Shown: in pieces, positions 24,021 through 64,000 of the stretch
Numbering within the stretch: the stretch's first letter is position 1
Layout of the letters: the number at the start of each line of letters is the position of its first letter
Origin: Candidatus Magasanikiibacteriota bacterium
Lineage (GTDB): Bacteria > Patescibacteriota > Patescibacteriia > Magasanikbacterales > GWA2-37-8
Direction: 5' to 3'
Assembly (NCBI GenBank): GCA_963840935.1
Contig: CAWJAS010000001.1
Span: forward strand, 706,790 to 770,789
Length of the DNA stretch: 64,000 bases
Notes under the pieces: model-generated
Told to the model about the DNA's origin: nothing
Seen by the model: the letters and a program-made list of their open reading frames with translations, nothing else
Databases searched by the model: none
Program-made: the position numbers and the translations under genes

Positions 24021-24024
24021 ACCT

Positions 24025-24135
24025 CACCGCGGAGCGGAGACCGTTGTTGTCGTTCCGATTGCCAGGATCGTTCCTGTTCAAGTTGGCCTGGCGGTTGTCG
24101 CGGTTCCAGTAGGCGTTGCCCAGGTTGCCGAAAGC
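24025..24135 (-). repeat. DGR template repeat (TR). The sense (adenine-bearing) strand is the minus strand, and it is rich in AAC (Asn) codons.
   Basis: The minus-strand reading GCTTTCGGCAACCTGGGCAACGCCTACTGGAACCGCGACAACCGCCAGGCCAACTTGAACAGGAACGATCCTGGCAATCGGAACGACAACAACGGTCTCCGCTCCGCGGTG aligns to both VRs. All differences fall at its adenines. Confidence 0.9.
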
Positions 24136-24434
24136 ATTAGTGATAATATCCGTCCGTAAAATTGAATGACCGCGGTCAATCCAAAATTGCGCCTATTGCG
24201 CTAAACAAACCCGCGCGGGGGTATAGATATTACTCATCACGGTGGGATTTATGTGTAAGGGTTTACGCCACACGATATTTGCTAAAATATTTTAGAAATA
24301 CTTCGCGTTTTTTCGGCGTTTGAACATAGCGGCAGCCCGCCCCAAGGCGGGTGGCTTTTCACCGGGTATGTTATTTTTTTTAAAAACGAAAAACCCCAAA
24401 ACCAAAAGAAAAAAGAAAAAACAAAGGCCAAAGA

Positions 24435-25424
24435 TCAAGCACCCACCCCCACCGCGGAGCGGAGACCGCTGTCGTCGTACCGACTGCCAGGAACGCTCCT
24501 GACCAAGAAGGCCCGGCGGCCGTCGCGGTCCCAGCAGGCGTAGCCCAGGTTGCCGAAAGCGGGATTAAAGGTGCCGGCGAGGAAACAGGCACTGCCTTTG
24601 CCTTGGTAATTATCAATCACCTGGTTGGTTTTGTGCAGGTGAGTAAGCATTTGGGTGGTCCAATCCTCGATGGTCAGGCCTTGTTCATGCCGGTAGGTTG
24701 GGTCGGTTTGTAGGGTTTTGAGATATTGCTGTGGTTCTTTGCCTGCTTCCAACTGTTTTCTGTTGTTCAGGGTTTTGCCTTTGCCCTCTCTCGGTATATT
24801 CGGGCTGGCTTCCAAGAGGATGACATTCCAGCCGGGGAAGGGCGAGTTGTTTTTGTTTTGTTTGTCGATTATTTGTTGTTTGGTCTGGCCGTTATGGTTT
24901 TTCTCGTCAAAGGATTCGGGGTAGTAAACGCACTTGCCGGTAACATCGGCCCCTCTCTCGCCCTGTGGGGCGTTCGGGTCGAGCCATTCGTCCAAGGTGT
25001 AAAGGGGTTGGTTGGTGTCTAATTCCAATGGTTCGTCCGGGTCAGTGTCTTTGTCCTTGGTAGCCAGGAGTTTACCTTGTCTGTGGTGTTCGAGGATTTG
25101 TTTCTCTAAAGTGTGGGTTAATCGTTCAAGCGGGACAGCAAAAGAGGTGAGCTGTAGTTCGGTGAAACCTTGTTTTCTTTTGGTATCATATTTTTCTTTG
25201 TCTTTCTCTAATTCGGCCTTAATCTCCGTCCAGCTTGGGACCGGGTATTCTTTGCCGTCAATGCCAACCACGCCCTTGGCTTCGGCTTCGGGTAAGATAT
25301 CCAAAAGACCAATCTCGTTAAGAGCGGTCACTTGCTCTATGTATTGTCTTTTTACCTCATTCTCCAGCCAGTATTCAAAGGAGGAGGCGTCACGGGCTTC
25401 GGGTGAGGGGCGGTGTTCGGGCAT
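24435..25424 (-). CDS. DGR target (variable) protein B, an inverted paralog of protein A. Its C-terminus is VR2.
   Basis: 329 aa, near-identical to protein A until the last about 40 residues. Confidence 0.8.
   Translation of the reverse strand: MPEHRPSPEARDASSFEYWLENEVKRQYIEQVTALNEIGLLDILPEAEAKGVVGIDGKEYPVPSWTEIKAELEKDKEKYDTKRKQGFTELQLTSFAVPLERLTHTLEKQILEHHRQGKLLATKDKDTDPDEPLELDTNQPLYTLDEWLDPNAPQGERGADVTGKCVYYPESFDEKNHNGQTKQQIIDKQNKNNSPFPGWNVILLEASPNIPREGKGKTLNNRKQLEAGKEPQQYLKTLQTDPTYRHEQGLTIEDWTTQMLTHLHKTNQVIDNYQGKGSACFLAGTFNPAFGNLGYACWDRDGRRAFLVRSVPGSRYDDSGLRSAVGVGA
24450..24560 (-). repeat. DGR variable repeat VR2
   Basis: A 111-nt match to the TR with about 15 mismatches, all at TR adenines and at positions different from VR1. 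A downstream hairpin gcccgcc-ccaa-ggcgggt lies at 24347-24368. Confidence 0.85.
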
Positions 25425-37900: not shown

Positions 37901-40900
37901 ATCATAAAACAAATCACGCATTTCGTCTGGATTCAAAGCTCTGGCATAAATCCTCACATCATCAATATCGGCTTTAAAAACAGAATCGCAACCCAAGTCT
38001 AACGCTGAGCATTTCATACAATTACCAACACTACTGCAAATTGGCGTACCAATTCGAGGTTTCCCTTCATACATATGACCAAAGGAGGACGGATAAGAAT
38101 CACTACCGGATAAAGCACCGTCGACATAACACGAAACATTTGTTTGCCCGGCTTGTCGATCAAAAACGACTGCTATGTGATGCCATAAATTATCATTAAC
38201 TTTATCTTCAGAACATAAATAATCCGCCCCGTTATATGAAATTCTATAACTTACCTTTCCATTGCTAATACCAAAATAATATCTATTATTCGTACTATTC
38301 GGATCGGCGTCATTTGTAACCGTATACGCCCGATACTGACTCGAGGTTGTTTTTATCCAATGAGCGATTGTAAAAGACCTATTACCAATATCTGTCGCTT
38401 TTGTTGCAACCAAATACGCCGGCTGTTCCAAATGGAGAGCCTGGCTAATTCGCCCGCTTAATAAAGATGCTTTTCCTGTTGATTGATTAATTACGGCTTC
38501 GAACCCGCGACCGGTACTATCAGGTAATTTCCCATAAGTAACATAATCCATCGGCCAAATGGCGACGGCTCCTCTGCCCCACTCAATACTTTTTATCATT
38601 CCACGCAAATCATTCAAACGAGTATAGTTTCTTTGTAATTTATCTTTTTGGTTATAGCAAAAATAATTGCTCTTTGTGGTTGTGGGACTGGCTTTTTTTA
38701 TTGCTTCCATTTGCGCCAGACAATCCATATCGTTTGAACACTGCATTCCATAATCTATATTTGCGCCACTATAATCGGATGCGCAATATGGATCGTTTTT
38801 TAAACGAAGATTGAATTTTAAATACTTAATTATTTGATTAAATACTTCTTTTGTTTGGGCGGTGGCGTCGCTATTAATGCTAAACTGGTAAATATTTGAA
38901 TAAATATTAAATGTTGTCGGGTTGGTGTATAGGGGCTGAACCAACGCATCAATATAATAATTATTTCCATCGGTCAAAGCGTCAAAACCGTCTATTTTTA
39001 CCGAGTTCATCTGGCCAGTGTAGCCTTGAGACGCATACCAATCACTTATTGATAAATGATTGGAATTATAAAAAATCTGAATACCAATGGCATCTTTGTT
39101 GTTATTATTAATAAAAATATATCTTTTCACATAAGGTGAACCAACTGACGGCGTCCAAATTTGGCTGGTTGTAACATTTGGCAAATCATCGGCTATACCC
39201 ACCATACCATAATCCATGCAATAATAGGTGGAAAAATCATGTTCCTCGTCCTTGAAAGGAAAATTATCAAGCGAGCCGGAAGGCCAGCGATTCTCGCATA
39301 AAAATACTACGATTCGCGACTTTCCAGTAACGATCGGGGAAGCGAGCGGAAAAATATTTTCTGTAAAACGTGATGTGGCTGTTAAATCAACTTCTCCATT
39401 GCGATTTTTGGCAGTAACCACATTCACGGTGCCGGTGGCGTTTGCTATGGCAATAAATTCATTTTGAGCAGGGCCCCAATCATATTCCCACGAATAACCG
39501 GCCACCGGTTGGATGTACTGGTCATTTTGAGAAATTGATTTTACCTCAAAATCTTCTGTAACGCCGGACTTATTAAACATGTGTTCATCCGGATCAATTT
39601 CCGCTTTGTCCAATACACATATTTCATTACCGGTAATAAATTGCCATTGTGCGGTATTGCCAATACTCACTCCGCGAACATCTTTTGCGCCGGGTCTAAA
39701 AATAATGGCGTAGTCGCTGTCAAAAGCGAGCGGTTTATTGAGACTAATCAAAACAGAGGAGGTTGAATTAACACCCTTTGGGTCATTAACAATAACGCTG
39801 GGCGTTCCTGTTTCATCGCCAACGCAATAAATATTAGCATTAAATTCACTACGCGGTGTGTCAGCCGATGCTTTTATGCCGAATAAATTTTTAACCCAAC
39901 CTGTAAAACCGGCCCATAATCTTTTATACCATGGTTGTATCTGGTCACGCGCGTCCGCGATATAGCCCCTTACAAGATCCGTCACATCAATTTGACCAAC
40001 CGGACATTCGGGGGTTGTCGTGGCAATATTATAGCCACGAGCAATATAAACTGCACCTGGCAGTGTATTAATATCAATTACCTTGTTAAAAGTGGCTTCA
40101 ATATATGTATTTGGGCAAACATCAAACGCGGTCGCAACCTCAGAACTTGAAGGCATGGTGCGAGCGGGATAAGTATCAATCAAGAGCGCGCGTTCATAAC
40201 AGCATGAATTTTCCGCCACACCCATAAGAGGATTATTTGTTTGTATTTGACATTCAAGATCAGTATTAAAACCGCATAAAATTTCGAATTGTCCTTTGCC
40301 GGATTCGGTATAAATTTTTTCATCAACTTCTTGCTCACCGGTTGCGGTAATATCTGTAATTTGCGTATTGTTGGGCGTGGTAGTACCAAGACCGATTCCA
40401 ACTGCCAAGGCCCAAGGGTCAACAAACTCGCGAACATAAACAAAATTCTTTTCGCAATCGGGATCTTCGCCAATACCGACAATACCGTCTCCACAAAGCG
40501 AAGAGGTAGAATACATTAAAGACGATCCTTCATATTGCCCGATTGAGTTACATCCTTCTGATTTGATTACACTTGTATAAATTGGATTATTTTCAATATC
40601 TCTCACTACTAATGTGGTGGTAGGTGAACATTTTTTTAGCGAATCATCAAACACATTTATCAAACAACGGTCTGTGCAAATGAGCAGAGGATTAGTTGCG
40701 TCCTCGCAGGCCTTATCTTCATCCGGACTGGCTATATCATCACCGCAAATACTTTTTGCCTTGGCGCAAGCGGTGTTGAATTCAGACATTGAAAATCCGC
40801 CATAGGTGGTAGTATTATTGTCATCAACGCACCAACCGGCATATAGCGCTGAACCTAAATGCAAACACTTTTCAGAACAAAATAGCGATGAAGTCGAACG

Positions 40901-43900
40901 CCAAAAATCGGGCGAGGTTCCAAGGTCGCAATCTTCGCCCACGCCAATCATGCCATTTCCACAAATTGATGCGCCAGTATCTTCGGCTCCGGTTTGAGGA
41001 GATGAACCGGCATAAAGACAATTTGATGTGCATCCAGCGGATGTGGCTGGATTATTTGGGTCACATTTTTCGCCTTTGAGCGGGTTTACCACGCCATCTC
41101 CGCACAAGCCGTAATCAATAGTACCACCATAAGATATGGTTGTTGTTACATTATTATTCCCCGGTCGCAAACAATTAAGAGTACACGCCACTGTATCACC
41201 TATTTTTCGAGGAGGGTCGCAGTCTTCCCCGGCTTCCACCGCCATATTCCCACACAAAGGTTCCATTACTCCACCATAGGGAATTGAACTTCCTTTTTTA
41301 ACACAATTGGCGGTGCAAAAAGAATTTTTTCCTTTTGTTTTAAATTCCACAACCTCGGCAACCAAAATATCGCTTGATGCCCAATCCCAATCAAGCGACC
41401 ACGCGTTTAGCAATTGGCCTTCCGGGTCACAAGAATCCGGCGCTGAACGAGCCTGGGAAGAATAAACTTTGCGCGAATCAATGGTCAGGGCTCTATACAA
41501 AACCGGAGTTACCGTCACGCTGTCAACCGTGCATTTTTCACTTTTTGTTCTGAACCTCCAGCTAAACGCCTCTTGCATTGGCTTACCTTGAGATGATGGT
41601 TCATTAATTGTTTTTTGAGACCAAAGCTGTGAAGTTTGGTCGCCCACACTATCACCCGTTTTGGACAAAACCACCAAATACAAGGTATCTTTTTGCCATT
41701 CAGGATTTGGGTCTTCTGTTGTCGCCATCGGAACAATACTTAAAAACCTTAAATCATCGCCAAACTTCACATCCAAATCATAAGACGGAATCTGAACAGT
41801 AGAAGAACAATTTTCATCAAAACACTTATAAACTTTCACGCCATTATCAACATTATATGATGACATTCGAATATTAAATCTTGCTCCAATTTCCGCGTTA
41901 GTACATGCTTCCAAGCAATTCGGCCAATAATCAACCACGCGCGGTTTTGACAAATCAATTGTTAACGGACTAACACCGATTTTTTGATCATAATCAAATT
42001 CATTTATACCTTGATAAAGGGCAAAAACTTCTCCGGGCGTTAAATCTTTTTTGTATATTCTCACGTCGTCAATATCGCCGTGCCAAAATTCATTTGGGGT
42101 TGGATGAATTTGCGCGCCGATGTATGCATATTGTTGTACCAAATACCACCCCGGTTTGGCTTCTTTCGCCACTTGAACTCCGTTTGCATATAATGTGGCA
42201 TAAGTTCCGTCATAAGTTAAACAAATATGATTCCATATATCCGCCTGCCAAAAATTATTGACTTGAATATCATCTCCATATCCACCGGCAACCAAATGAC
42301 TGCCCAATCTTCCGATAAACATCGCTCGTCCGGTTCCCATCGAACCATAGGCAACCAGCCATTTATATGAAAAATTGACATCGGACGTTTTACCCCAAGC
42401 GCACATGGTTCGCGAATTTTTTGCATCCGGCAGAATCCACGGATTTGACAATACGACTACGCCATCAGTACCGTTCAATCTTATTGCCCTGTTTATTTTA
42501 CCATTCACAAAAGTAACCCCGCCTTGAATAACACCGTTATTTTCATCACCACCCATACTCATATCCAAAACATTATCTCCATCAAAAGTCCACCAACTTA
42601 TCAAGCCATTCTCTGAAGCAAGACTGCCCTTAGTGGCGGTTGCTTCAATGTTTGCCGCGTCTTCCGGATTTACTAATCCCACACTTACGGTATTGCTCAA
42701 GGCTGAAACTTGTTGCATATTGCCGTTCGTGCCTGTTGAAGCTCCGTACAGTTCAGCGTAACTATTTCTGCCGGCCTGAACCGACCATTCCCATTCATAA
42801 CCATCCATATTCATCATTATACATTTTTGGTCGCTTAGCCCAGTCCCGCGATAATAAAAATCCGTCCCCAAATCGTCCGTATTATCTTTAATATCTCGCC
42901 TCATAATCGGTTCTTCCAAAATTGACGTCCAATATGTATACGGGGTAACCACTACTCGTGCCAATTTACAATCCCGCGCGTCTGTTTTAAAAACAAAACA
43001 ATAAGCCGAATCTGCTCCGCAAGTGCTTTGTGGTTTTAGATTTTGGGGGCCCAAAGCAATTTCATCATCGCCATACATATATGATGTCGGCGCCGACATT
43101 AAATCTGTTTGCAATACAACATGATAATAAGTATCATCTTCCCACTGTCCGCTTTGCGGAAACATTTGAACATAGTCATGATTGGCATTTTCCACGGCCG
43201 AAGCGGGATACAAAACATAGCTATCATTTTTCATTTGTACTGGCCCGCCAACATGTACACAAGAATTGACTGTTGGAAAAAAAGCTCCTTCTAATGAAGA
43301 TGTGGTACATTTAAAAACTTGGATATTATTCGCATTTACAGAACTCTGTAACATTCTCATGGAAAATTCAACCGTTATTTCAGCTGTCCGACATACATTA
43401 AAATGATCGTTGTTTTCAGACAATGACCAGCGAATATTCGGTGATGGTGATGGTAAATTCAATCCTAAATCCGTTTCGCTATTACATCTTTCAACAACTC
43501 TCGCGGTCGGAGGGAAAGGCCCTGTGTTAAATCGCCACATATAACCGGTGGATCGCGTTTGTCCATCGCACAATTCCGTATTCAAACGACAAATTCCGGC
43601 ATCATTACCGGCAGTGCAACATTGATAAGCCGGACTAGCACAAGTATTATTATTTTCTAAACAATTAAAAACAGTAAAGGGCATGCTGTTGCCCATCTTT
43701 CCATCAGTTGAGCGATACATGACGACCGGACCCGTCTCTGTATCCCAAGGCGGTTGAACAACCGCACGAGTATTGGAAACGGAAATGGTACCAGTGGTTG
43801 TTCTTCCGGTGATCGACAAAGGATCGGCGGCTGATAGCCAAAAATACGGCACGGCCAAAACACTGTCCCTGGTATAATATTCACCAAATATCTGCATTGT

Positions 43901-46171
43901 CGCCGTTTGGGCAAATGGAATTGGACCGCTGGCAGGGTCAATTTTACAAATACCCGGAGCGGGGTTACCTGACTCCAAAGCAAAAGTTGCTCCAACCGGA
44001 CTAATTGCGTTATCGCTTGAACGTTGAATTTGAACTTTATAATTTCTGCCCTCCTGTACGCTTGAAGTTGGGAACTTCACTACCACTTGCTTGTCACTCC
44101 AAGTTGCGCCTTCACACTCTTCCGGGAAATCAAAAGTTCCATAAACCGCTTCGGTTTCTTCGTATTTAAATAATACTTTTCCCGTATAACTGCCAAAATT
44201 TTTACCGGTGATTGTAATGTATTCCCCTCTCGCGCCATCTTCAGGATAAATACTCTCAATCATCGGCGCGCCTGAATCCAAAACTTCTCGCACGTTAAAC
44301 TGAACGCTGTTACTATTTTTATTATCATTCATTAATTTTACGGGAACAGCGCCGGTTCCAAGAGCCGGCACTCGAGCTGTCACGCTATTGCTTGACCAGT
44401 TATAAATTATCGGAGTGGAAGAAGCAAAAAATACATTATCTTGGCCTTGCGTTTGGCTTGACCCAAAATTCTCACCAATCAAAACAACATTTGTATATGG
44501 AGCGCCATAATTTGGCACAACGGCGCAAAGCCCGGGCAACAATTCATCATTAACAGTAAAATTCCCTTGGTAGCCCCAACCATCGTTATCTGTGACATCA
44601 ACAAATTTTGTTTCTTCCGTGCCCGCGGTTTCCACTTTAATCGGACCGGTTATGGCATCAGGAGGAACTTTGACAATAATTTGCGATTTAGTCCAATTAT
44701 CAATTCCAGCTCCGCAATTCGCCACAAATGCTTCCGACCACCCGTCCCCTTCTGATTTTCTAAAATAAACATGACCGCCGTCATCACCAAAATATTGACC
44801 CCAAATTGAAACATAGGTGGTGCTAGCGGCACCTGCGGTCGGACTAAAACCGTTGATTCGCATTCTATCGACACAAATTCCTTCTTCACACCAACCACTA
44901 GCGCAATCGCTATTCTCGGTACATGATTCACCGGCGCACGAGCCACATTCGCCTCCACAAGCCGGCGGACCGGCAATAGTTTCTCCAAAATTTAGCTGGT
45001 CATCAAAACAATGGCCGGCTAAAAGCATAATATCGCGTGAAGTTGAAGCAGACAATGCGGCATTATCAAAAACAATTGATTCTAATGAATATGTACCAGT
45101 TGGTGACGTGCCGGACGACCAATTTAATGTGGTGGTGCCAGATTTTTGGCACCCGCTTATTGACTGGCTATCGATTGGCGTACCGTTAACATATAATGAA
45201 ACATTTTGAACACCAAAATTATCGGTATAATATATTTCTACCGGTACCACCGAACCTTGGGCAAATGATTGATTGTTAAAAGGATTGATTATCGCAATGG
45301 TCGGCGGGTCGACATCGACACTATCTCCGGTAACAAATTCAACCGCCGGAGTGTTTTTGCATTGAAGTTTATAATTCCCAACATTACAATTCAAACTTAA
45401 CGCATCCTGACTTTTTATATTTGAAGAATTTACAAAATATATTTGATAAGTAGTGCTGGCATCTAAACAATCATTTTGTGGCGGTTCCACTCCGCAATCT
45501 CCGATTGGGTCAAAAACAATCGCGTTTTGTTTATCAATAGAAACCAAGCGCCAAATTCCCTCTGCCGGCGCACCCGTTTGCTTATTTCTTATTACCAAAT
45601 TATCGGGAACTGTGGCAATGTCAATCGCTTTATTGAAAGTTATTATCGGGTGAATATTCCTGATACCGCAACCCAAATCATCGCCCGGCATTGAGGTGAT
45701 ATACAAAACATTGGTAAACGACCCCGGAGGGCCACCCGGACCGCCAGGACCCCCTTCTCCGCCGGTGGTGGCGCTGACCAATGCATTAATAACAAAACTG
45801 GCAATGGCATAGGCGGATAAAATAATCGCCAAACCGATTGCCGCGTTAACCAAAATCTTTTTTGCTTTTTGTATTTTTTCTTCATTTCCGCCGGCTGTCA
45901 TCCAGACAAATCCGCCATAAAGAATGAGAACCAGTGCGACAATTCCCAAAAACCCCAAAGCCACCCTAATAATTCTTGCCACCACCAAACGAATGTCTGT
46001 GGTCGGTAGCCCGATAGTCTCCCCGATTTCATCCATTTGCATCTCATCGACAGTGATGAGTCCTGTGGCAGGCTCTGTTTGAGCCAACACTTGAAGAGCA
46101 AAAAATAGACCGGCCCAAATTATTACGACCAGAAGCAGTGAAGATAAAATTTTTCTTTTTTGGCCGATCAT
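34931..46171 (-). CDS. Giant (3,746 aa) membrane-anchored extracellular protein. Domains are an N-terminal two-TM module, multiple concanavalin-A-like/LamG lectin domains, a vWA domain, more than 8 Myxococcus-type cysteine-rich repeats, and Ig/IPT-like beta domains.
   Basis: One uninterrupted 11.2-kb ORF. LamG signatures are DDVRIY(A/K)xxL, repeated at least 3 times. The vWA MIDAS motif is YYFLVDLSGSMNY...LVTDGAS. The Cys-rich repeats are CGDGxxxxxEECD, CGNGVLDSGEFCD, CGNGIVDEFEACD and similar. The N-terminus (...GLPTTDIRLVVARIIRVALGFLGIVALVLILYGGFVWMTAGGNEE...) is paralogous to the upstream 711-aa protein. Confidence 0.85.
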   Translation of the reverse strand: MIGQKRKILSSLLLVVIIWAGLFFALQVLAQTEPATGLITVDEMQMDEIGETIGLPTTDIRLVVARIIRVALGFLGIVALVLILYGGFVWMTAGGNEEKIQKAKKILVNAAIGLAIILSAYAIASFVINALVSATTGGEGGPGGPGGPPGSFTNVLYITSMPGDDLGCGIRNIHPIITFNKAIDIATVPDNLVIRNKQTGAPAEGIWRLVSIDKQNAIVFDPIGDCGVEPPQNDCLDASTTYQIYFVNSSNIKSQDALSLNCNVGNYKLQCKNTPAVEFVTGDSVDVDPPTIAIINPFNNQSFAQGSVVPVEIYYTDNFGVQNVSLYVNGTPIDSQSISGCQKSGTTTLNWSSGTSPTGTYSLESIVFDNAALSASTSRDIMLLAGHCFDDQLNFGETIAGPPACGGECGSCAGESCTENSDCASGWCEEGICVDRMRINGFSPTAGAASTTYVSIWGQYFGDDGGHVYFRKSEGDGWSEAFVANCGAGIDNWTKSQIIVKVPPDAITGPIKVETAGTEETKFVDVTDNDGWGYQGNFTVNDELLPGLCAVVPNYGAPYTNVVLIGENFGSSQTQGQDNVFFASSTPIIYNWSSNSVTARVPALGTGAVPVKLMNDNKNSNSVQFNVREVLDSGAPMIESIYPEDGARGEYITITGKNFGSYTGKVLFKYEETEAVYGTFDFPEECEGATWSDKQVVVKFPTSSVQEGRNYKVQIQRSSDNAISPVGATFALESGNPAPGICKIDPASGPIPFAQTATMQIFGEYYTRDSVLAVPYFWLSAADPLSITGRTTTGTISVSNTRAVVQPPWDTETGPVVMYRSTDGKMGNSMPFTVFNCLENNNTCASPAYQCCTAGNDAGICRLNTELCDGQTRSTGYMWRFNTGPFPPTARVVERCNSETDLGLNLPSPSPNIRWSLSENNDHFNVCRTAEITVEFSMRMLQSSVNANNIQVFKCTTSSLEGAFFPTVNSCVHVGGPVQMKNDSYVLYPASAVENANHDYVQMFPQSGQWEDDTYYHVVLQTDLMSAPTSYMYGDDEIALGPQNLKPQSTCGADSAYCFVFKTDARDCKLARVVVTPYTYWTSILEEPIMRRDIKDNTDDLGTDFYYRGTGLSDQKCIMMNMDGYEWEWSVQAGRNSYAELYGASTGTNGNMQQVSALSNTVSVGLVNPEDAANIEATATKGSLASENGLISWWTFDGDNVLDMSMGGDENNGVIQGGVTFVNGKINRAIRLNGTDGVVVLSNPWILPDAKNSRTMCAWGKTSDVNFSYKWLVAYGSMGTGRAMFIGRLGSHLVAGGYGDDIQVNNFWQADIWNHICLTYDGTYATLYANGVQVAKEAKPGWYLVQQYAYIGAQIHPTPNEFWHGDIDDVRIYKKDLTPGEVFALYQGINEFDYDQKIGVSPLTIDLSKPRVVDYWPNCLEACTNAEIGARFNIRMSSYNVDNGVKVYKCFDENCSSTVQIPSYDLDVKFGDDLRFLSIVPMATTEDPNPEWQKDTLYLVVLSKTGDSVGDQTSQLWSQKTINEPSSQGKPMQEAFSWRFRTKSEKCTVDSVTVTPVLYRALTIDSRKVYSSQARSAPDSCDPEGQLLNAWSLDWDWASSDILVAEVVEFKTKGKNSFCTANCVKKGSSIPYGGVMEPLCGNMAVEAGEDCDPPRKIGDTVACTLNCLRPGNNNVTTTISYGGTIDYGLCGDGVVNPLKGEKCDPNNPATSAGCTSNCLYAGSSPQTGAEDTGASICGNGMIGVGEDCDLGTSPDFWRSTSSLFCSEKCLHLGSALYAGWCVDDNNTTTYGGFSMSEFNTACAKAKSICGDDIASPDEDKACEDATNPLLICTDRCLINVFDDSLKKCSPTTTLVVRDIENNPIYTSVIKSEGCNSIGQYEGSSLMYSTSSLCGDGIVGIGEDPDCEKNFVYVREFVDPWALAVGIGLGTTTPNNTQITDITATGEQEVDEKIYTESGKGQFEILCGFNTDLECQIQTNNPLMGVAENSCCYERALLIDTYPARTMPSSSEVATAFDVCPNTYIEATFNKVIDINTLPGAVYIARGYNIATTTPECPVGQIDVTDLVRGYIADARDQIQPWYKRLWAGFTGWVKNLFGIKASADTPRSEFNANIYCVGDETGTPSVIVNDPKGVNSTSSVLISLNKPLAFDSDYAIIFRPGAKDVRGVSIGNTAQWQFITGNEICVLDKAEIDPDEHMFNKSGVTEDFEVKSISQNDQYIQPVAGYSWEYDWGPAQNEFIAIANATGTVNVVTAKNRNGEVDLTATSRFTENIFPLASPIVTGKSRIVVFLCENRWPSGSLDNFPFKDEEHDFSTYYCMDYGMVGIADDLPNVTTSQIWTPSVGSPYVKRYIFINNNNKDAIGIQIFYNSNHLSISDWYASQGYTGQMNSVKIDGFDALTDGNNYYIDALVQPLYTNPTTFNIYSNIYQFSINSDATAQTKEVFNQIIKYLKFNLRLKNDPYCASDYSGANIDYGMQCSNDMDCLAQMEAIKKASPTTTKSNYFCYNQKDKLQRNYTRLNDLRGMIKSIEWGRGAVAIWPMDYVTYGKLPDSTGRGFEAVINQSTGKASLLSGRISQALHLEQPAYLVATKATDIGNRSFTIAHWIKTTSSQYRAYTVTNDADPNSTNNRYYFGISNGKVSYRISYNGADYLCSEDKVNDNLWHHIAVVFDRQAGQTNVSCYVDGALSGSDSYPSSFGHMYEGKPRIGTPICSSVGNCMKCSALDLGCDSVFKADIDDVRIYARALNPDEMRDLFYDSLPYNGGYPNLPENTYLPGHAFSVWPTTWSDLGSQLNTQLPVDPINKLAQSGTCFLPVSGNQYEACFRDADCATIPISGRSSYWTADEGNKDEGAIGNNATIEGTVQTVAGKGHGKAFEFAGDSSAKVVAGNFDEYNGDNFSVSAWIYPTKRNTATIIKKGGSDGDGNSLGGFILEYSGLQFTGSQVRFNNGTIRFAIFPEASNPNKYYAIDSQEPLGLNQWYYISATFNKNTKTGKLYINGNLVSETFRVPPNGASVTITEPSFPYATNTLSIEMGESFNGKIDNIAFYSRELDTAEIGNLYAGLCVLHDPVTGWSAEDRRFSFACNTSSYAYRYSFVSTTQSYLLRANLETLQSPEPQNYFNFLNDFTFNKVLFEYGVCASANEISSPYNVYCGDGVLGSGEECDPPGSVSYNTVACPASATKKTCNSQCAWGAESLTTCAEAIGGTCGDGKIQYSIGEVCDDGLLNGQPGRCNTGCSGIFQTCGNGVLDSGEFCDTVLATATQPVTCAYRPGVETKKGFTTEPVYYFLVDLSGSMNYSFSGAATPPPGEKSRLQYVQEQLPLLAVQFAESETKAKIGIGSFRSSNIFVDYLDPDIKFAMPVEVAGVVGTFAASGGTPTGAAIKWWRENIYENFSEEDKQRQINLILVTDGASTGVPTPTEEITLLNSPGYGVLTYVFGVAYFTQAFNDWAAAGGTYQYIPINDSSDSILDQMLEIYYSQPCRQYDIFNAFSCNWNCTGFGGYCGDGMLQTDSGEQCEGTTPVPCTTDGGFSGTAECLNCQLQECIADSAVPTVGVCGNGIVDEFEACDRGEDENGIICTPIYPQQNCTYCSADCKNVITKDIVCGNGILNESELCDPGMSNGGFARTMFIDEVDRCLPCKTDCTGWDVSKSVVNSISSGCAVNSFPVSLTDPINLVGRGYCGDGIRQGVLNINYASGLLIPPYPWINFSYEECDIDPSNCPACTVFGQVKSCTNQCRCSCVFPSLL

Positions 46172-51896: not shown

Positions 51897-51970
51897 GGGC
51901 GTATAGCTCAGCTGGTTAGAGCGTTTCGTTGACATCGAAAAGGTCTCCCGTTCAAGTCGGGATACGCCCA
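51897..51970 (+). tRNA. tRNA-Val (anticodon GAC)
   Basis: GGGCGTA / GCTC-AGCTGGTTA-GAGC / TTTCG-TTGACAT-CGAAA / TCCCG-TTCAAGT-CGGGA / TACGCCC-A. Confidence 0.85.
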
Positions 51971-51991
51971 CAAGTAAGAGTTTCACAATAA

Positions 51992-52065
51992 GGGCAATTA
52001 GCTCAGATGGTTAGAGCGCGTCACTGATAATGACGAGGTCGGAGGTTCGATTCCTCCATTGCCCA
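51992..52065 (+). tRNA. tRNA-Ile (anticodon GAT)
   Basis: GGGCAAT / GCTC-AGATGGTTA-GAGC / CGTCA-CTGATAA-TGACG / GGAGG-TTCGATT-CCTCC / ATTGCCC-A. Confidence 0.85.
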
Positions 52066-52097
52066 CATTATAAAATTACCACCTTTAAGAATAATAA

Positions 52098-52126
52098 TAA
52101 AAACACTGCCAAAATAGGCAGTGTTT
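52098..52126. terminator. Bidirectional hairpin terminator between the convergent tRNA pair and the 16S rRNA gene
   Basis: aaaa-ACACTGCC-aaaat-aGGCAGTGT-tttt. Confidence 0.55.
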
Positions 52127-52241
52127 TAAATTAACAATATAAACGTGACAAAAACCTAAATCGTTCACCCCGTTCCGAAAGAAATTAATCTTAACTCGGA
52201 ACTCGACTGAGAATCGTCTGCCTTTCGGCAGAAGTGTCTCC

Positions 52242-53780
<1,539 letters not shown>

Positions 53781-54129
53781 TAAATAAGATATTTGATTTT
53801 ATTTTTTGACGCCTAAGCGCCAAAAAAGAATTTGTATTTTTTGTTTTTAGGAATAAACGATTATCTATGAACAAACCGAAATTTGTTCATGTGGTTTTTG
53901 TCACATTTATATTGTCAACGATCGTTCTTTTCGCTTTCACAATCGCGTACTCATACGATTCTTGTATTTTTCGAGTTTGAATAAACTCGCGCGGAAAGAA
54001 AAAAGAGGAAGCCAAACTGACTTACTCTTTTCTCCTTCCAGTTTCCTCTTTTCGCAAAAATCAACGAGGACTTAGAAAAATATTTGATTTATTAAAGATG
54101 AAATTTTTGTCAGTATTTTTTTAGCTTGT

Positions 54130-56377: not shown

Positions 56378-58348
56378 TCATTCTTGATTCGGCACATCAT
56401 CGATTTTAACGCTCAATAGCTTCGAAATTCCATCCGAGGCCATGGCCACTCCATAAAGCGCGTCAACTGCGTGCATCGTCACTCGATTATGAGTAATCAA
56501 AATAAATTGAGCGTGCTTGGATAATTCGGAAATAATTTTGGTAAAACGAATTGTATTTGCTTCATCAAGAGCGGCTTCGACCTCGTCAAGCACCACAAAA
56601 GGCGAAGGATTATAATTCAAAACAGCACAAATTAAAGCAATGGAGGTGAGAGTGCGCTCCCCTCCAGACAAAGAATTCAAACTTTTTATTTTTTTACCCG
56701 GCGGATTGGCGGTCACTTCAATACCCATCAAAATCTTTTCTTTTTTATTTTTTAATCGAGTATTTTCCGCAGAAATAATTTGTTCTTGATTTTCAAAATC
56801 AATATTTTCGCCAACATTTTCCGGCACTTCTTCCTCGTACACTTCAACCAAATCCGCATTACCCCCTTCAAATAAAATATTAAAAAATCTGTTAAATTCT
56901 TTGCGTATATTTCTAAAAGCGACCACTCGTTTTGATTTCATCAAATCATCAAGTTCAGCGGACATTTTGGTCAAATCGGCTGTCGCCTGACGCAAGTCAG
57001 TCAACTGATTAAACAAGAAGTTAAATCTCTCTTTGGTGGTTTCGTATTCGCTTATCACTTCTTCGTCAATACCTCCGATTAAATTCAATTGGTATTTTAA
57101 TTTTTGAATTTCTAACGCCAATTTTTCATAATCTTCAACTTCCAAAATATCCTGGCGCCGGCCAATAATTGATTCCAAAGAAATATTCATGTCATTTCTC
57201 ACTTCTTCATTCAGCGATTCCGCTCTGGTTTCAAGCCGAGCCAAAGCCACCCTCAGGTCATTGCGAACCGTGGCAATGCCGTTCAAATCGTTTTGTTTAA
57301 TTTGCATTTGTTCTTGAAGAGAAAAAACATGTTGTTTCTTTTGTTCCTCGCGTTCATTAAAATCCCTCATTTCATTTTCGATTTTTTGGACTATGGCGAC
57401 TTTGGCGTTCATCTCGGCCATCAATCTTTCTTTCTCGCGATTTAATTCCGATAATTTTATTCCATACTCTTCAGGGCTCATTTCCACAAACGATAATTCG
57501 CGTTCAATTTGCGCCAACTCTTTGTCCAAATTTTGTTTTTCGGTTTCAACAAGCGCCCGTCTGGCAACATTTAACTCGCGCTTAACCTCCAAATCAGACA
57601 ATTCTTTTTTGGCTTGTCCAAGCATTTGTTCAATATCCAAAAGATTTTGCTGTTCCAGAGCAAGAGAACGTTGGCATTCTTTGATTCTATCTTCCGCCCC
57701 CATCATTATTTTTGTGGCAAAACTGATTGAACCAAAACGGTCTTTCCGCCACCCTCCTTTCATCACACCTCGCTTTTCAATCAAATCACCATTCAAGGTG
57801 ACCATGCGCGCCCGACCAATGCCGATTAGCTGGGCGGTTTTCATATCTTTCACCACCAATGTATTGCCAAGAACAAATTGAAAAATATTTTCAAATTTTG
57901 AATCAAATTTTATCAAATCAACCGCCTTGCCGACAACACCCGGCTCGTTTACTAATTCGTTTAAAACCGCGTCTTCCTGCCTGGCGGTAATTTTGTTAAT
58001 CGGTAAAAATGTGGCCACACCCAATTTGTTTTCTCGCAAATAATCAATCGCTCGCTTGGCAATATCATCCGTTTCCACCACCACCGAAGAAAGATTGCCT
58101 CCGGCAGCCACATCAAGAGCCAGCCGATTTACTTCGTCGGTCTCACCAAGCTCGGCGACAACACCGAATATTTTTCCAATTTGAGATTTGTTATTCAACA
58201 CCGCTTTTATGGCCGTAAGCCCGGAAACCTGCAAAAAATTCTGCTCTGATTGGTAGACCTGATCTAGCCAGGGATGTGCTAAGTGATGTGCCTCATGTGG
58301 TTTTAACAAAGCAGCAATCAGCGTTGAAGTATCAAATACTAGTCTCAT
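56378..58348 (-). CDS. smc: SMC (chromosome condensation/segregation ATPase) fragment. It has the hinge, second coiled-coil and C-terminal head only. The N-terminal Walker-A head and first coiled-coil are absent. The first about 40 aa look PIN-domain-like.
   Basis: Hinge is GKIFGVVAELGETDEVNRLALDVAAGGNLSSVVVETDDIAKRAIDYLRENKLGVATFLPINKI. The ABC signature is LSGGERTLTSIAL. Walker B and D-loop are VVLDEVEAALD. There is no GxxGxGKS anywhere. The N-terminus MRLVFDTSTLIAALL resembles the start of PIN (VapC) domains. Confidence 0.7.
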   Translation of the reverse strand: MRLVFDTSTLIAALLKPHEAHHLAHPWLDQVYQSEQNFLQVSGLTAIKAVLNNKSQIGKIFGVVAELGETDEVNRLALDVAAGGNLSSVVVETDDIAKRAIDYLRENKLGVATFLPINKITARQEDAVLNELVNEPGVVGKAVDLIKFDSKFENIFQFVLGNTLVVKDMKTAQLIGIGRARMVTLNGDLIEKRGVMKGGWRKDRFGSISFATKIMMGAEDRIKECQRSLALEQQNLLDIEQMLGQAKKELSDLEVKRELNVARRALVETEKQNLDKELAQIERELSFVEMSPEEYGIKLSELNREKERLMAEMNAKVAIVQKIENEMRDFNEREEQKKQHVFSLQEQMQIKQNDLNGIATVRNDLRVALARLETRAESLNEEVRNDMNISLESIIGRRQDILEVEDYEKLALEIQKLKYQLNLIGGIDEEVISEYETTKERFNFLFNQLTDLRQATADLTKMSAELDDLMKSKRVVAFRNIRKEFNRFFNILFEGGNADLVEVYEEEVPENVGENIDFENQEQIISAENTRLKNKKEKILMGIEVTANPPGKKIKSLNSLSGGERTLTSIALICAVLNYNPSPFVVLDEVEAALDEANTIRFTKIISELSKHAQFILITHNRVTMHAVDALYGVAMASDGISKLLSVKIDDVPNQE

Positions 58349-58611
58349 GACATCAATGCTGCCAGTCGCTGTTCACGGTCTTGTTGCACAAAATCTGTTT
58401 CCTGGTCCGTCAGCTCACCATTATAGACCAATACATGATTTTCATAGGTCAAATGAGAGGGCATTTCCTTAACCCGCACCTCGAATGCCATCACTCTGGC
58501 GTCTTCACAATTAGGGACATCCCGGTACCCCAGTCCAAATTGTTTTCGCAAAGCTTCCGAAACAGCGATAATTCCTGGCTTTTCCAGAGTAATCTCTACC
58601 GTTGAATTCAT
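58345..58611 (-). CDS. Hypothetical 88-aa protein. Its stop overlaps the start of the SMC-fragment ORF (ATGA), so it is a possible antitoxin-like partner of the PIN-like N-terminus.
   Basis: The ORF sits in a region of intermediate GC and shows translational-coupling geometry. No recognisable family. Confidence 0.3.
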   Translation of the reverse strand: MNSTVEITLEKPGIIAVSEALRKQFGLGYRDVPNCEDARVMAFEVRVKEMPSHLTYENHVLVYNGELTDQETDFVQQDREQRLAALMS

Positions 58612-58852
58612 GCTTTTTCTCCGATCTCAAAGTACAGGCCCTGTTGTGATGAGCTTTCCGAGTCTTAACTCAATTCTCACTACTTTTCACCCATTCGTCA
58701 AACTCACGAAGCAATTGCTGTTTCACAGGAGCTGGTGCGACACGTCACAAAGGCATTGCGCGCCCACACGGGCCAGATCAACCTGATCATAGCCAAATTC
58801 TGTGGCCAGCACCTGATATTCCTGGGTGAGCGACGTGTTAAAGAGCGGCGGG

Positions 58853-59845
58853 TCACTCACTGTTGACCGTGACCAGCAGCCCCATGCGATCCAGTTCGGG
58901 GAAGGGATGGTCCGCCAGGTTGGGATAGACGTGCGGACAGATGTTACTGGTCGGGTTGAGTTCCAGGGGAATCTGGCGCTCTTTGAGCAGGGCCAGCAAC
59001 TTCTCATCTTCAATGGCGCGCACACCGTGTCCAATGCGGTCGGCATGTAAGGTTGTCACCGCGCCCCAGATGCTGGCCGGTCCCACCGTTTCCCCGGCAT
59101 GAGGCACCGAGAGCAGACCAGCCGCTTTGGCGGTGCGAAAGACCTGGGCAAACGGCTCCGGCGGCGCACCAACTTCATAGCCGCCCAAGCCAAAGCCGAC
59201 CACCCCTTTGTCCTGACCGGCTAACGCATACGCCAGTGTCCGTTCAGCGGGATAAGCGTTGTAATATTCCTTGGTACGCAAACCCAACCGGCGTAATTGG
59301 GCGTCCACCACCCGCTTGACGCCACGCACCTTGCTCGACTTATGCCACGGTTTGAAACTGGTGTTGCGCGGAATGTCAAAAACCCAGCGCATTTCGACGC
59401 CAAAGTCCCGTTTTGCCTCGGCAAGGCGCGGCCAGTTTCTAACCCTTCAAAGAGCGCTTCTATCGTTAACCCTTTCTCCTGCGAAGTCAGTGTGGGTAAA
59501 AGGCGTAAAGGTCACCTTCGCGGTAGCGGATATTCTGCGCCGCCATATCCGCGCCACAGGCATGGACGATCAGCGCAAAATCTTCCGGCGTGCGCAAGAG
59601 ATCCGAAATCGTCCAGTAAATCTGGATAAAGTGCGGGAAATCGGTAAAGGTAAACCAACGGCGCAGGCCATCCAGATCGGTCGTGGCAGCTTACTCTTCC
59701 CGCCGGTGCCGGGGCGCGCCAGTTCCAGCAACGTCTCCGGTTGGATTGCGCCTTCCAAATGCACATGAATTTCCGCTTTGGGCATGGCCTGGATAAAATC
59801 ACGGGTTGAGGGCTGAAGGTTGAGTGGTACATTCATGGGATTCAT
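58853..59845 (-). pseudogene. add: Adenosine deaminase, disrupted by at least two frameshifts. High-GC region.
   Basis: The N-terminal fragment (59570..59845) has PKAEIHVHLEGAIQPETLLELAR. The C-terminal fragment (58853..59392) has GFGLGGYEVG, HAGE and LELNPTSN. The middle is out of frame. Confidence 0.6.
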
Positions 59846-60107
59846 CGTTGATCAAAATTTTGTTTGACGTGAATGGCAGGTAGAATGGTAAAGGAAGTGC
59901 CAGTTCAACGTTCGCTAAAGAATGGCTGAGAAAGAGAAAACCCTTCCTGTCAATGGAAGCAGTATGCTTTAAGCTTGCGAAATGCCCCCTGCGTATGATC
60001 TGGCCAGGCGATAACCGTTAGCTCACTTCAGAAATTCTAACCGAATTCATGTATATTGATCAAACTCAAACCGATTCGACGCAAACCATTCAACCGCTTG
60101 CATACAA

Positions 60108-61395
60108 GTGGAGTTGGGTAAGACGCGCAGAAGCGTTTTTTATCTACTGATGTTCACTATTGCTTTGATGTTGAGTGGTGGCAGCGCCCTGCCGGCCACG
60201 CAAGCCCGCGACCGCGGCATGGCGATGATTGTCGCCGGCTGGGGCTTTGATCTGCTCGGTTGGGAAGCGGAAGCGGTTGCGGCCAAATTACGTGCCCTAC
60301 TCAACCAACCCGCTGCTGGATTGACCTATACAGAAGCGGTCAGTCTGGTTCGCCAGTATCTGGATCACGCCCAGCAAATTCGTGAGCCTCGAGAAGGAGA
60401 TCAATCGTAGCTTTGCTGAAAATCAACACAAGGCCACATCAGAGATAAAACAACAGCAGGCCCAAATTACTGCATTACGGGCGCAACAACAGCAGAAACG
60501 CCCTACGGTTGAACAGATCATCGAAGGCCAGGTCACCTATGAATTGCAGCAAGAGGGGCTAGAATGGGCAAACTGGGCTTTCCCACCCGTTCAGTTTACC
60601 TTTGTCGAACCACCGCGGTAAATTGGTCGTCAGCCCGCGTGCGATAAAATCACCACGATGTATAGCCAAATGCTGGATGCCGAAATGAGCATTGACCAGC
60701 TTGAGCAAAGTGAAGCCGCTTATCGCCAACAGTACAATGTCAGTGCCTATATCGCCAATATCGGCGGGTTAGGCGCCTTCCCCACCATGGTGATTGACCG
60801 CGCTGGTCTCTCATGGATTTTGAGCACGGTCGCCCACGAGTGGTGTCATAACTATCTCTCGCTCTTTCCGCTGGGCCTCAACTATCTCACCAGCGCCGAT
60901 CTGACCACGATCAATGAAACCGTAGCCGAGATCGTCGGCAATGAGAGTCGGCGACCGCGCACTGCGTACCTTCTATCCCGATCAAGTGCCACCCCCGACG
61001 CCGCAAGAATCACCGGTCCAACCAGCGCCCAATGCGCCGACACCGTTTGACTTTTATCAAGAATGCGCGAAACCCGCCTGCGGGTCGATGGCTTACTAGC
61101 CGCCGGCCAAGTCGAAGCCGCCGAGCGCTATATGGAAGCCCGCCGTCAATTTTTTGTAGCGCATGGCTACCCCCTGCGCGTCCTTAACCAGGCATATTTT
61201 GCCTTTCACGGCAGCTATGGCACCAGTGCTGCCAGCACCAGCCCCATCGGCCCTAAGTTAGAAGAATTGCGCCGCTTGACGCCTGATCTCCACCTTTCTC
61301 CAGGTTGTACGCAGAATCACATCAGCCGAAGAACTCGACGCCATTCTAGCCGACTGGCAAAGGCGCTGATCGCTCCGGCCAGTTGCAATCACTAA
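60108..61395 (+). pseudogene. Fragmented membrane-anchored HExxH-type putative metallopeptidase. It comprises four consecutive ORFs in alternating frames.
   Basis: ORFs 60108-60410, 60382-60621, 60658-61050 and 61063-61395 abut or overlap. Present are VAHEWCHNY (HExxH) and an N-terminal TM/signal. GC is about 58%. Confidence 0.35.
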
Positions 61396-61423
61396 TCACC
61401 CGATCACCCAATACCGAATCGCT

Positions 61424-62161
61424 ATGCGCTTTTCTTTCACCACCCAACCGGCGACCTTCTTGGAGCGGCCCAATCGCTATCGCATTGTCGCTCAACTACA
61501 CGAAAATCAGCAGATCGTCAACGCCCACTGCCCTGACCCTGGCCGCCTGCGCGAGTTACTCATTCCCGGCGCCACCGTTCACCTGAGCAACGCCAGCCAC
61601 AATGAACGCAAAACGGCCTATGACCTGCGTTTTGTTGAACATCCAGAGCACGGTCAACTGGTCAGCCTCGACACCCGCATTCCCGATCAAATTTTCCAAG
61701 AGGGACTGGAAACCGGCTTTTTCAGCCCCTTCCGTGGCTACCACGCCATGCAACGCGAAGTCCCTCTCCCCCATCCACCAGCCGATGGCGGTGTCCATAG
61801 CCGGATTGACTACCGGCTGATCGATGCCAATGGACAGCCCTGTTGGATCGAAGTGAAGTCGGCCAGCCTGGTCGAAGAGCGCTGCGCCCGCTTCCCTGAT
61901 GCCGTCACGGCGCGTGGACGGCGCCATGTGCTGGAGCTAGCCGAAATGGCGCAACGTGGCGTGCGCACAGCCATTGTCTTTATCATCCAGCGCCCCGACG
62001 CCGACCTGCTGCGGCCCCAGTGGAGCACCGATCCGGATTTTGGGTATGCGTTAATAGCAGCCCAAGTTGCCGGGGTCGAGATTTATGCCTATACCTGTAT
62101 CCTCACCCTGGAACAGGTTACGCTAGAACGAGCAGTTTCGGTTGTTCTAACCATCGACTAA
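61424..62161 (+). CDS. sfsA: Sugar fermentation stimulation protein A (SfsA, nuclease-fold DNA-binding protein)
   Basis: 245 aa. The RPNRYRIVAQL start, the DLRFVEHPEHGQLVSLDTRIPDQIFQEGLETG run and the RIDYRLID...CWIEVKSASLVEE run are conserved SfsA blocks. Confidence 0.85.
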   Translation: MRFSFTTQPATFLERPNRYRIVAQLHENQQIVNAHCPDPGRLRELLIPGATVHLSNASHNERKTAYDLRFVEHPEHGQLVSLDTRIPDQIFQEGLETGFFSPFRGYHAMQREVPLPHPPADGGVHSRIDYRLIDANGQPCWIEVKSASLVEERCARFPDAVTARGRRHVLELAEMAQRGVRTAIVFIIQRPDADLLRPQWSTDPDFGYALIAAQVAGVEIYAYTCILTLEQVTLERAVSVVLTID

Positions 62162-62238
62162 CCAATTACCAACAAAACGCCAACATTTTCGCGCTTTACA
62201 AAAACGAACTCCTGTGCTATACTAGTATTGTCAGTCAA

Positions 62239-62649
62239 GGGGATGTCCGGTTTCGACGGGGCAGGAAGTGCTTTGATTGCAGGTCGTAGAGCGTGTGGCT
62301 ACGTAAAAAGACGCAAAACATATAAATGCCAACACAGGCAAATCCTTCAACTTCGGTTTCGCTAGCGCCCCTATGGCGGTTGCAGCCTAACTAAAAGTGG
62401 AAGATTGATCCTTTAACCAGGATCACGGCCCGTTCTAGTGTTACTCTCAGGCTAGACGCAAGCTGAAATATACTGCTGAGTTGCGGGGGCTAGACGCCGA
62501 TACGGCCCCTTAAGACACATCGGCTAGTTGGGCATAGGAATCTCGTCGCCGGAGTCCGCCAGCGAAACAACAAATGTGCAACTAAACCTGTAGACGTCTC
62601 TGTACAAGTGTTTCGGACGGACGCGGGTTCAATTCCCGCCATCTCCACC
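62239..62649 (+). ncRNA. ssrA: tmRNA (ssrA). The predicted tag peptide is ANTGKSFNFGFASAPMAVAA.
   Basis: The 5' end is GGGGATGTCCGGTTTCGACGGGG. The 3' tRNA-like end is GGACGCGGGTTCAATTCCCGCCATCTCCACC. An internal tag reading frame begins at GCCAAC and ends at ...GCGGTTGCAGCCTAA. Confidence 0.85.
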
Positions 62650-62656
62650 TATAAAA

Positions 62657-62690
62657 AGCGGCCCGGATATGATCCGGGCCGCTTTTTTAT
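62657..62690 (+). terminator. Rho-independent terminator after tmRNA
   Basis: AGCGGCCCGGAT-atg-ATCCGGGCCGCT, followed by TTTTTT. Confidence 0.7.
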
Positions 62691-63429
62691 TTATACTATA
62701 ATAATTCGTGCGTTAACAGAATTTCCTCTACTTCTGCCGCAAATTGCAGTAAAGGTCGGGGGGACATTCCCATTGGCAGAGGCGCATGTACATCAGTTTG
62801 GCCAAAGGGGTGGTAGTGCCAAACACCATAGTTCATAATCGCAGCCATAAAGTCTCCCCGCAGCACTTACTAAAGCAAGGCTTAACCGATTACTGCGCAA
62901 ACTCAAAAAAGTCTGGATGAACAAGTCATCGTTGATTTGCGATCCGTGGTCATTGTACGGTCAGTACGCTCAACAATCACGAATGAACGCACAAACCAGA
63001 ATGTATCGCTAACTTCAATTGCTTCAAGCAGTAACTGGTCAATTGTTGGCATGGCAAATCAGTTAGCTGCCGCTGGATTGTTTCAATACCGTCAACCGCC
63101 GTCTCCCAGGCCATCGCATCGATTCAACTTCCCAGCTATAGTTCTGCTGCTTGTCATATGCTGCTGCTCAAATTCGAGCAAAGGTCATTCCATATTTTTT
63201 CTGCAACTGCCGATCCGTCAAGCTGACCACGCTAAGCGGCGACGAATGTCAGTGGAGCAGGCTACTCAATTTTTGGTCAATTTCGGTAGCCTGTCCAATG
63301 ATCGATTGTTTAAATGCTGGGCAATATTGTCAGAAATCTGAATTGTCACACTCATAGTTCCTCCACACCAACGTTTTCACGATTGATGATATTAACACCA
63401 GTATACGAGATGATTTCTATTTTGATTCA

Positions 63430-64000
63430 GCAAAAGTCGTTGCCCAGTCGTCTGTCTGACCGATCAAGCAGCCACAACCTCGCGAATGGCCTGGCTGATC
63501 CGCCCCACATTCGGGATCGAGCATCCTCCAAGGGCGGGCTATAGGCCACCAGGGCGCCACCCATGTTGACCCGTTTCACCGGTGCGTCGAGATAGTAAAT
63601 GCCCATGATCGGCGGCCAGCGACACAATATCACCACCCCAGCCCGCACCATGGGGCGCCTCTTCCACAATTACCAGACGGCTGGTCTTAGCAATCGAAGT
63701 CGAGTATGGTCTCTTCATCCAGCGGGACCATGCTGCGCAGATCGATCACTTCCACGTCGATGCCTTCTTCGGCGAGCGCTTTTCAGCGGCTAGCGCACGG
63801 TGCATCATCAGTTGCGATCCACGACCACCGTTACATCTTTGCCCTGGCGGCGCACCTTGGCCTTGCCTAGTTCCATAGGACCGGTGTTGTCGGGGACATC
63901 TTCACTGATGTTATCGAGCCCCTTGTGTTCCAACACAAAGACCGGATTGTTCTCCCGAATCGCGCCACGCAGCAGCCCATAGGCGTCGGTCGGCGTGCCG
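63430..64000 (-). pseudogene. 2-oxoacid dehydrogenase E1 beta / transketolase C-terminal-domain gene fragment with several frameshifts. It runs off the right edge.
   Basis: The reverse-strand translation contains ...GTPTDAYGLLRGAIRENNPVFVLEHK..., ...EEGIDVEVIDLRSMVPLDEE... and ...VEEAPHGAGWGG... in different frames. Confidence 0.45.

Follow-up and report, generated by a model that had tools for sequence, protein, structure and literature searches.

Does the right end of a public Patescibacteria contig belong to the organism whose name it bears, and why are most of its genes broken? The question is raised by a 64,000-nucleotide (nt) stretch of contig CAWJAS010000001.1 (positions 706,790 to 770,789; assembly GCA_963840935.1, Candidatus Magasanikiibacteriota bacterium), which was analysed as a whole and is referred to as the window. 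A preliminary description had noted a terminal segment of high guanine-plus-cytosine (GC) content, in which frameshifted genes surround an intact sfsA and an intact transfer-messenger RNA (tmRNA) gene. It had proposed either low-coverage or poorly polished contaminant sequence or a decaying acquired segment. We find that window 58255-64000 is very probably a piece of chromosome from a member of the Caldilineaceae (Chloroflexota), artefactually joined to a Patescibacteria chromosome, and that it represents low-quality contaminant DNA. The contaminant alternative gains support from a blunt junction that truncates the genes on both sides, and from small insertions and deletions (indels) that come with neither relaxed selection nor nonsense substitutions. 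The same observations disfavour a decaying segment.

The taxonomic switch within smc

The GC content is about 0.40 across most of the window and 0.50-0.64 from about 58.7 kb to the right end. Stop-free stretches of at least 200 codons make up 85% of positions 1-58254 and 16% of 58255-64000. The high-GC and frameshifted nature of the right end is thus as originally described. A Pfam search found adenosine deaminase pieces in three frames and an intact SfsA in the right part. A protein of the public 770,905-bp contig (P0001) has exactly the sequence of the sfsA product, whose closest named relatives are all Caldilineaceae. A scan of GTDB species-representative genomes placed 13 of 13 sfsA loci in Caldilineaceae or Chloroflexota. 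The 90% sfsA protein cluster has 14 members in public assemblies, and the closest relative shares 97% protein identity; none of the assemblies identified was a second one from the same population. As had been expected, the affinity of the intact genes lies outside Patescibacteria, and it is Caldilineaceae for sfsA and the whole segment alike.

The contigs carrying members of the 90% cluster (L001-L005) are collinear with window 58688-64000 at a DNA identity of 86-90%. Leftward homology to contigs L019-L021 reaches 58255, with 99% identity over the first 150 nt. Overall, independent short-read contigs from relatives align collinearly with the segment, their nucleotide identity being 86-99%. The gene order in the relatives is adenosine deaminase (minus strand), a protein of 439-441 residues (plus), sfsA (plus), tmRNA, small variable genes, and E1-beta (minus), and all genes at this locus are intact. 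In L019, the deaminase is followed by an 87-residue gene, a 146-residue PIN gene, rluD, lspA, and his genes. Because the intact gene order is collinear in the relatives and the tag peptide of the tmRNA is shared with them, the segment, as judged by sequence comparison, is a chromosomal region of ordinary content from a Caldilineaceae-like organism and not a mobile element. Judged in the same way, the remainder of the window is Patescibacteria, a lineage of the candidate phyla radiation (CPR). The features at the switch are as follows.

56378..58253, minus strand: 3' part of Patescibacteria smc (C-terminal 625 of about 1018 codons), the last CPR-derived sequence
58254..58255, no strand: blunt breakpoint between CPR and Caldilineaceae-like DNA, seen when the window, L026, and L019 are aligned together
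58256..58348, minus strand: 5' end of a PIN (VapC-like) toxin gene (first 31 of 146 codons, the other 115 missing)

The smc part contains the Pfam SMC_hinge domain and only the C-terminal half of SMC_N, and shares 94.7% identity with residues 395-1018 of a 1018-residue relative. On the contigs of CPR relatives (L025, L026, and L027), clpP, a DHH phosphoesterase gene, smc, rpsP, a KH-domain protein gene, and trmD follow each other in an order that agrees with the window read in reverse. The N-terminal 394 codons of smc, the DHH gene, and clpP are absent within the 64-kb window. Homology to CPR contigs stops at 58253 (L026) or 58252 (L025), Caldilineaceae-like homology runs from 58255, and the three-way alignment contains no shared bases at the junction. 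The 31 PIN codons are identical to the N-terminus of the 146-residue PIN protein that L019 encodes (Pfam PIN/PIN_3). In relatives of either organism, smc or PIN is full-length and is followed past the breakpoint by its usual neighbours. Hence, both flanking genes are truncated exactly where the taxonomic affinity changes. The foreign stretch is terminal, as had been noted, but it starts at 58255 rather than 58600 and includes an antitoxin-like open reading frame (ORF) and the 31 PIN codons.

As the two truncated genes are on the same strand and in frame, they make up a chimeric ORF of 656 residues (56378-58348), which is already in protein databases as P0157 of the 770,905-bp contig. Its C-terminal 625 residues are 93-95% identical to 1018-residue SMC proteins, and the more distant SMC matches are named Patescibacteria or Magasanikbacteria. 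A fictitious PIN-SMC fusion protein thus enters the databases.

We considered whether the junction could be biological. In genuine horizontal acquisition, a Caldilineaceae fragment would have integrated into smc, and its genes would be decaying while sfsA and the tmRNA gene (ssrA) are retained. In its favour, the deposited sequence does contain both the junction and the broken genes (P0001, P0149, and P0157), and sfsA is intact amid broken neighbours. However, the insertion would destroy smc, whose missing half is absent from the window together with the DHH gene and clpP. Within the window, the segment has no integrase, att-like repeat of the ssrA 3' end, or mobility gene, its content being ordinary chromosomal synteny. 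Amelioration is likewise absent, the identity to Caldilineaceae-like contigs being up to 99%. In view of these points, and of the selection and tmRNA results below, we regard acquisition as highly improbable. Alternatively, the junction may be a real molecule in which a Patescibacteria episymbiont, or a subpopulation of it, captured DNA of its filamentous Caldilineaceae host, recorded by a single long read. The join would then be biological and would point to the host of the CPR lineage, while the indels would still be read errors; we give this scenario hardly any credence. A search for the junction 25-mer gave 0 matches in JGI metagenome contigs, which is weak evidence because that collection does not cover these populations.

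Private indels and the test for decay

Five protein-coding features of the foreign segment are affected by indels.

58345..58611, minus strand: antitoxin-like ORF of 88 residues (87 in relatives), still open but scrambled in the middle
58688..59845, minus strand: adenosine deaminase gene with about eight window-private indel events and Pfam A_deaminase fragments in three frames
60049..61369, plus strand: gene of an uncharacterised HExxH protein (439-441 residues in relatives) with seven window-private indel events
63055..63355, minus strand: homologue of a 107-residue hypothetical protein, located by tblastn of the L002 protein and split over three frames
63464..64000, minus strand: 3' part of the pyruvate/2-oxoacid dehydrogenase E1-beta gene (codons about 149-325) with five window-private events, continuing past the window

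The deaminase, HExxH, and E1-beta genes had been described as multiply frame-broken, and relatives from five samples indeed have intact genes in their place. The list of broken genes was incomplete, as the antitoxin and the 107-residue gene are affected as well. The gene limits also shift: the deaminase gene spans 58688-59845 rather than starting at 58853, and the HExxH protein gene spans 60049-61369 rather than 60108-61395. In relatives, the deaminase is an intact protein of 384-388 residues and E1-beta is encoded by an intact 325-residue gene (Transket_pyr and Transketolase_C). The frame-corrected deaminase of the window scores 294 bits in Pfam. The 439-residue HExxH protein, the 87-residue antitoxin, and the 107-residue protein matched no Pfam or NCBIfam family.

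To count the indels, alignments to L019, L001, L002, L020, and L021, which represent five samples and, over most of the segment, three lineages, were projected onto the window. A strict position-by-position count under-counts private indels, as gap placement is ambiguous, and was replaced by offsets of 8-nt clusters. A private event is a cluster for which every available relative agrees on a non-zero net offset. This gave about 27 window-private events in 5746 nt. Specifically, the antitoxin gene and its immediate flank account for five (58481-58633), the deaminase gene for eight (58737-59719) in addition to a -1/+1 pair at 59684/59694 that cancels out, the 439-residue gene for seven (60118-61297), the tmRNA gene and its terminator for three (62558, 62614, and 62681), and E1-beta for five (63520-63819), with none in 61298-62557. 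About 11 more indels, seen against one lineage only, occur in 62751-63418 and split the 107-residue gene across three frames. The short-read contig L028, which is 96% identical, confirms a -1 at 61061 and a -2 at 61289-97 as window-specific, and aligns without indel over sfsA and the 5' part of the tmRNA gene.

The adjacent CPR smc coding sequence served as a control. Compared with L026 at the same 88% identity, it has 0 indels in 1876 nt; at the rate of the foreign segment, the Poisson probability of this is 1.5e-4. In the foreign segment, the indels arrive in bursts regardless of gene type, e.g. four events within 48 nt (58481-58528), and pairs or groups 10-50 nt apart restore the frame. The antitoxin ORF illustrates this: its five indels add up to a net +3 and leave it open, but about 20 residues are scrambled in the alignment to L019 (58481-58528).

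Low depth alone may not be the source of the indels. The collapse of several co-occurring Caldilineaceae strains of about 88-96% identity could also produce them, the join still being artefactual. Many related lineages exist in public assemblies, as the 14 members of the sfsA cluster illustrate, different relatives match the segment in a patchy way, and several indels sit where relatives differ among themselves, e.g. at 59482 and 59515. A fine-scale mosaic of known lineages was looked for along the segment as an indel source and was not seen, and indels also occur where all relatives agree, e.g. in the tmRNA gene at 62558 and 62614. Strain collapse is thus unlikely, though it retains some weight.

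We then asked whether the substitutions carry the sign of decay that the indels would imply if they were real. The indels were removed in the frame of the relatives, and Nei-Gojobori distances, nonsynonymous (dN) and synonymous (dS), were calculated. For the deaminase, dN and dS are 0.042 and 0.49 between the window and L002, compared with 0.033 and 0.48 between two intact relatives. The corresponding pairs are 0.097 and 0.68 versus 0.075 and 0.43 for the 439-residue gene, and 0.048 and 0.67 versus 0.034 and 0.62 for sfsA. E1-beta shows a slight rise in dN (0.034 vs 0.003 over 175 codons), part of which comes from misaligned codons beside indels. The dN/dS ratios of the corrected genes are about 0.09-0.14, near the values of intact relatives. 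No internal in-frame stop was found in about 990 corrected codons, the sole stop being at the variable C-terminal end of the deaminase, four codons ahead of the stop of the relatives. Private substitutions are equally dense or less dense in indel-rich stretches than in clean ones.

Decay is disfavoured because of the low dN/dS and the complete lack of internal nonsense substitutions in the corrected genes. A rate of about five frameshifts per kb that leaves selection unrelaxed and adds no internal nonsense fits an indel-only error process, not neutral decay. This bears on acquisition, under which neither the unrelaxed dN/dS nor the absence of internal nonsense and of excess private substitutions would be expected. 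It bears equally on a variant that combines an artefactual junction with real indels, in which this region would truly be pseudogenised in the donor Caldilineaceae strain. Real donor indels would account for their presence in the deposited sequence, for the bursts, and for an apparently compensated one in the terminator hairpin. On the other hand, they would have to affect a housekeeping E1-beta gene and a tmRNA gene that are intact in all relatives, to reach about five per kb with no rise in dN/dS and no internal nonsense, and to include the frame-restoring groups, which are typical of consensus noise. We consider this variant very unlikely.

The clean stretch, sfsA, and the tmRNA gene

If sequencing error broke the neighbouring genes, the intact sfsA needs an explanation. 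The features concerned are the following.

61424..62161, plus strand: sfsA (DNA/RNA nuclease SfsA), intact, with Pfam SfsA and SfsA_N and a TIGR00230 equivalog match of 173 bits
62239..62650, plus strand: Caldilineaceae-type tmRNA gene (ssrA), found by ARAGORN and Rfam, recognisable and full-length
62651..62690, plus strand: terminator hairpin after ssrA, with a private +1 (C, 62681-62682) balanced by a substitution in the opposite arm

The gene sfsA is intact, as had been noted, and has no indel relative to L001, L002, L019, or L028. The tmRNA gene is not, contrary to the preliminary description. At 62558, one C of a CCC run is lost (-1), and at 62614, just 5' of the T-arm, CGGA is duplicated (+4); neither change is present in four relatives. 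The Rfam score of the gene is 136.5 bits, compared with 147-152 in relatives, and the two indels together lower the score. Its tag peptide is the same as that of the relatives.

The left limit of the indel-free stretch (61298-62557) is 127 nt upstream of sfsA, and its right limit falls within ssrA. The stretch would thus track position rather than gene boundaries, and locally better read support fits it more than selection does. Selection as the cause of the intactness of sfsA was set aside as unnecessary, as the stretch is not bounded by a gene and its length is only modestly improbable. Damage to the tmRNA gene and a clean stretch without gene boundaries also speak against acquisition with retention of sfsA and ssrA. 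An island targeted to ssrA was another candidate and was rejected. With up to three mismatches allowed, no second copy of the 25-nt ssrA 3' end was found in the window, the far boundary of the segment being outside it, and no integrase domain was found in the ORFs at 62608-63357.

Several points weigh against an artefactual join with error-derived indels. First, there are about 19 net insertions and 8 net deletions, mostly outside homopolymers. This spectrum is not the classic nanopore profile of homopolymer deletions, and the platform cannot be named from it. Second, if events fell uniformly at the 5.9 per kb seen outside the indel-free stretch, the probability that sfsA escapes them would be 0.013. 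For the clean stretch of 1158 nt it would be 0.001, and about 0.03 when this stretch is treated as the longest among 28 gaps. Given the clustering of the events, all three values exaggerate how unusual this is. Third, the terminator hairpin has an insertion that appears to be compensated and that may reflect a genuine change. Fourth, the other end of the foreign segment is outside the window. Finally, we infer the low coverage and the artefactual nature of the join from comparative evidence rather than from direct observation, and the same holds for the long-read origin and the exact route of joining. With these points weighed, each mark of a chimera or contaminant with sequencing-error frameshifts that was looked for was found in the segment, while those of genuine pseudogenes and of an ssrA-targeted island were not.

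Proposed history, neighbouring features, and known systems

The following history would best account for the join and the indels. An error-prone community assembly, from long reads or otherwise, may have yielded a high-coverage CPR chromosome from a sample in which the Caldilineaceae organism was probably much rarer than the CPR organism. A low-abundance Caldilineaceae fragment would then have become attached to it, because a read was chimeric, because the assembler misjoined two sequences, or because a mis-binned contig was concatenated. Any of these three routes could leave a blunt junction without shared sequence. The consensus of the rare organism, presumably derived from very few or poorly polished reads, would have retained about five small indels per kb, which gene callers would read as frameshifts. 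Extra polishing is needed for low-coverage long-read bins, in which indels fragment gene calls (PMC9262707; preprint 10.1101/2021.08.23.457338, proovframe).

The terminal segment is in all likelihood an assembly artefact in a public genome and not a biological feature. The main value of this result is database hygiene, namely a flag on a public CPR genome, rather than new biology. A near-complete public Patescibacteria contig (770,905 bp) appears to hold at least 5.7 kb of Caldilineaceae DNA, including a tmRNA gene, sfsA, an adenosine deaminase gene, and part of a 2-oxoacid dehydrogenase gene. Taken at face value, these foreign genes would distort metabolic reconstructions of CPR organisms as well as counts of horizontal transfers and pseudogenes. 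The analysis also demonstrates a test that needs no reads: broken genes are frame-corrected against relatives, and decay is then sought in dN/dS and nonsense substitutions.

Aside from the artefact, the Caldilineaceae neighbourhood has features of its own. The protein of 439-441 residues with an HEWxH motif is conserved directly upstream of sfsA in Caldilineaceae-like contigs (window 60049-61369; L002 8628-9947; L001 8012-9337; L019 3197-4516). Different toxin-antitoxin pairs occupy the same positions across lineages: MNT/HepT or the 87-residue gene with PIN beside the deaminase, ParE/Phd before sfsA, and HigB, a PIN-like pair, or the 107-residue gene downstream of ssrA. These sites are at 5758-6626 and 9334-9886 in L001, 1881-2720 in L002, 1127-1849 and 5945-6645 in L019, and 58255-58611 and 62700-63400 in the window. 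The module of the 87-residue gene and PIN is 99% identical between the window and L019, and the flanking genes about 86%, which suggests that the module moves between lineages.

The CPR part of the window also contains features worth recording. A diversity-generating retroelement lies at 22640-25424. Its reverse transcriptase (Pfam RVT_1) is at 22640-23647 on the minus strand, the template repeat is at 24022-24135, and the variable repeat (24447-24560) is in the 3' end of a 329-residue ORF (24435-25424, minus strand). All mismatches between the two repeats are at template-repeat adenines in the minus-strand orientation. The 16S rRNA gene is at 52244-53787 on the minus strand, with tRNA-Val and tRNA-Ile beside it on the opposite strand (region 51897-53787); no 23S gene is present in the window, and the rRNA genes appear unlinked. 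Two very long minus-strand ORFs, 1-3258 (at least 1086 codons, running off the left end) and 34931-46171 (3746 codons), are uninterrupted, and hence the consensus quality of the CPR part is high. The only strong frameshift suspect noticed there is a pair of same-strand ORFs, 6253-7116 (DUF11) and 6836-8002, which overlap by 281 nt.

We finally compared the segment with known systems. Like decaying acquired DNA, it has several adjoining genes with frame-disrupting mutations. It differs in that dN/dS is not relaxed, internal nonsense is absent, an RNA gene is also affected, and donor-type identity is up to 99%. Genomic islands at ssrA share with it a segment of foreign composition in which a tmRNA gene is followed by variable small genes. 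Unlike in such islands, the tmRNA gene is of the Caldilineaceae type, like the foreign DNA around it, and the break lies not at the ssrA 3' end but within smc and PIN, at a distance of 4 kb. As in low-coverage or unpolished long-read assemblies, many small indels fragment conserved genes while substitutions are unchanged, only in the part presumed to be of low depth, although insertions outnumber deletions here and most events are outside long homopolymers. Chimeric or contaminant contigs of metagenome-assembled genomes show the same abrupt taxonomic and compositional switch at one point, genes cut on both sides, and a foreign part that comes from the ordinary chromosome of a different organism in the community. 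Nothing essential sets the segment apart from typical chimeric contigs; what is unusual is the in-frame fusion that gives a plausible ORF of 656 residues.

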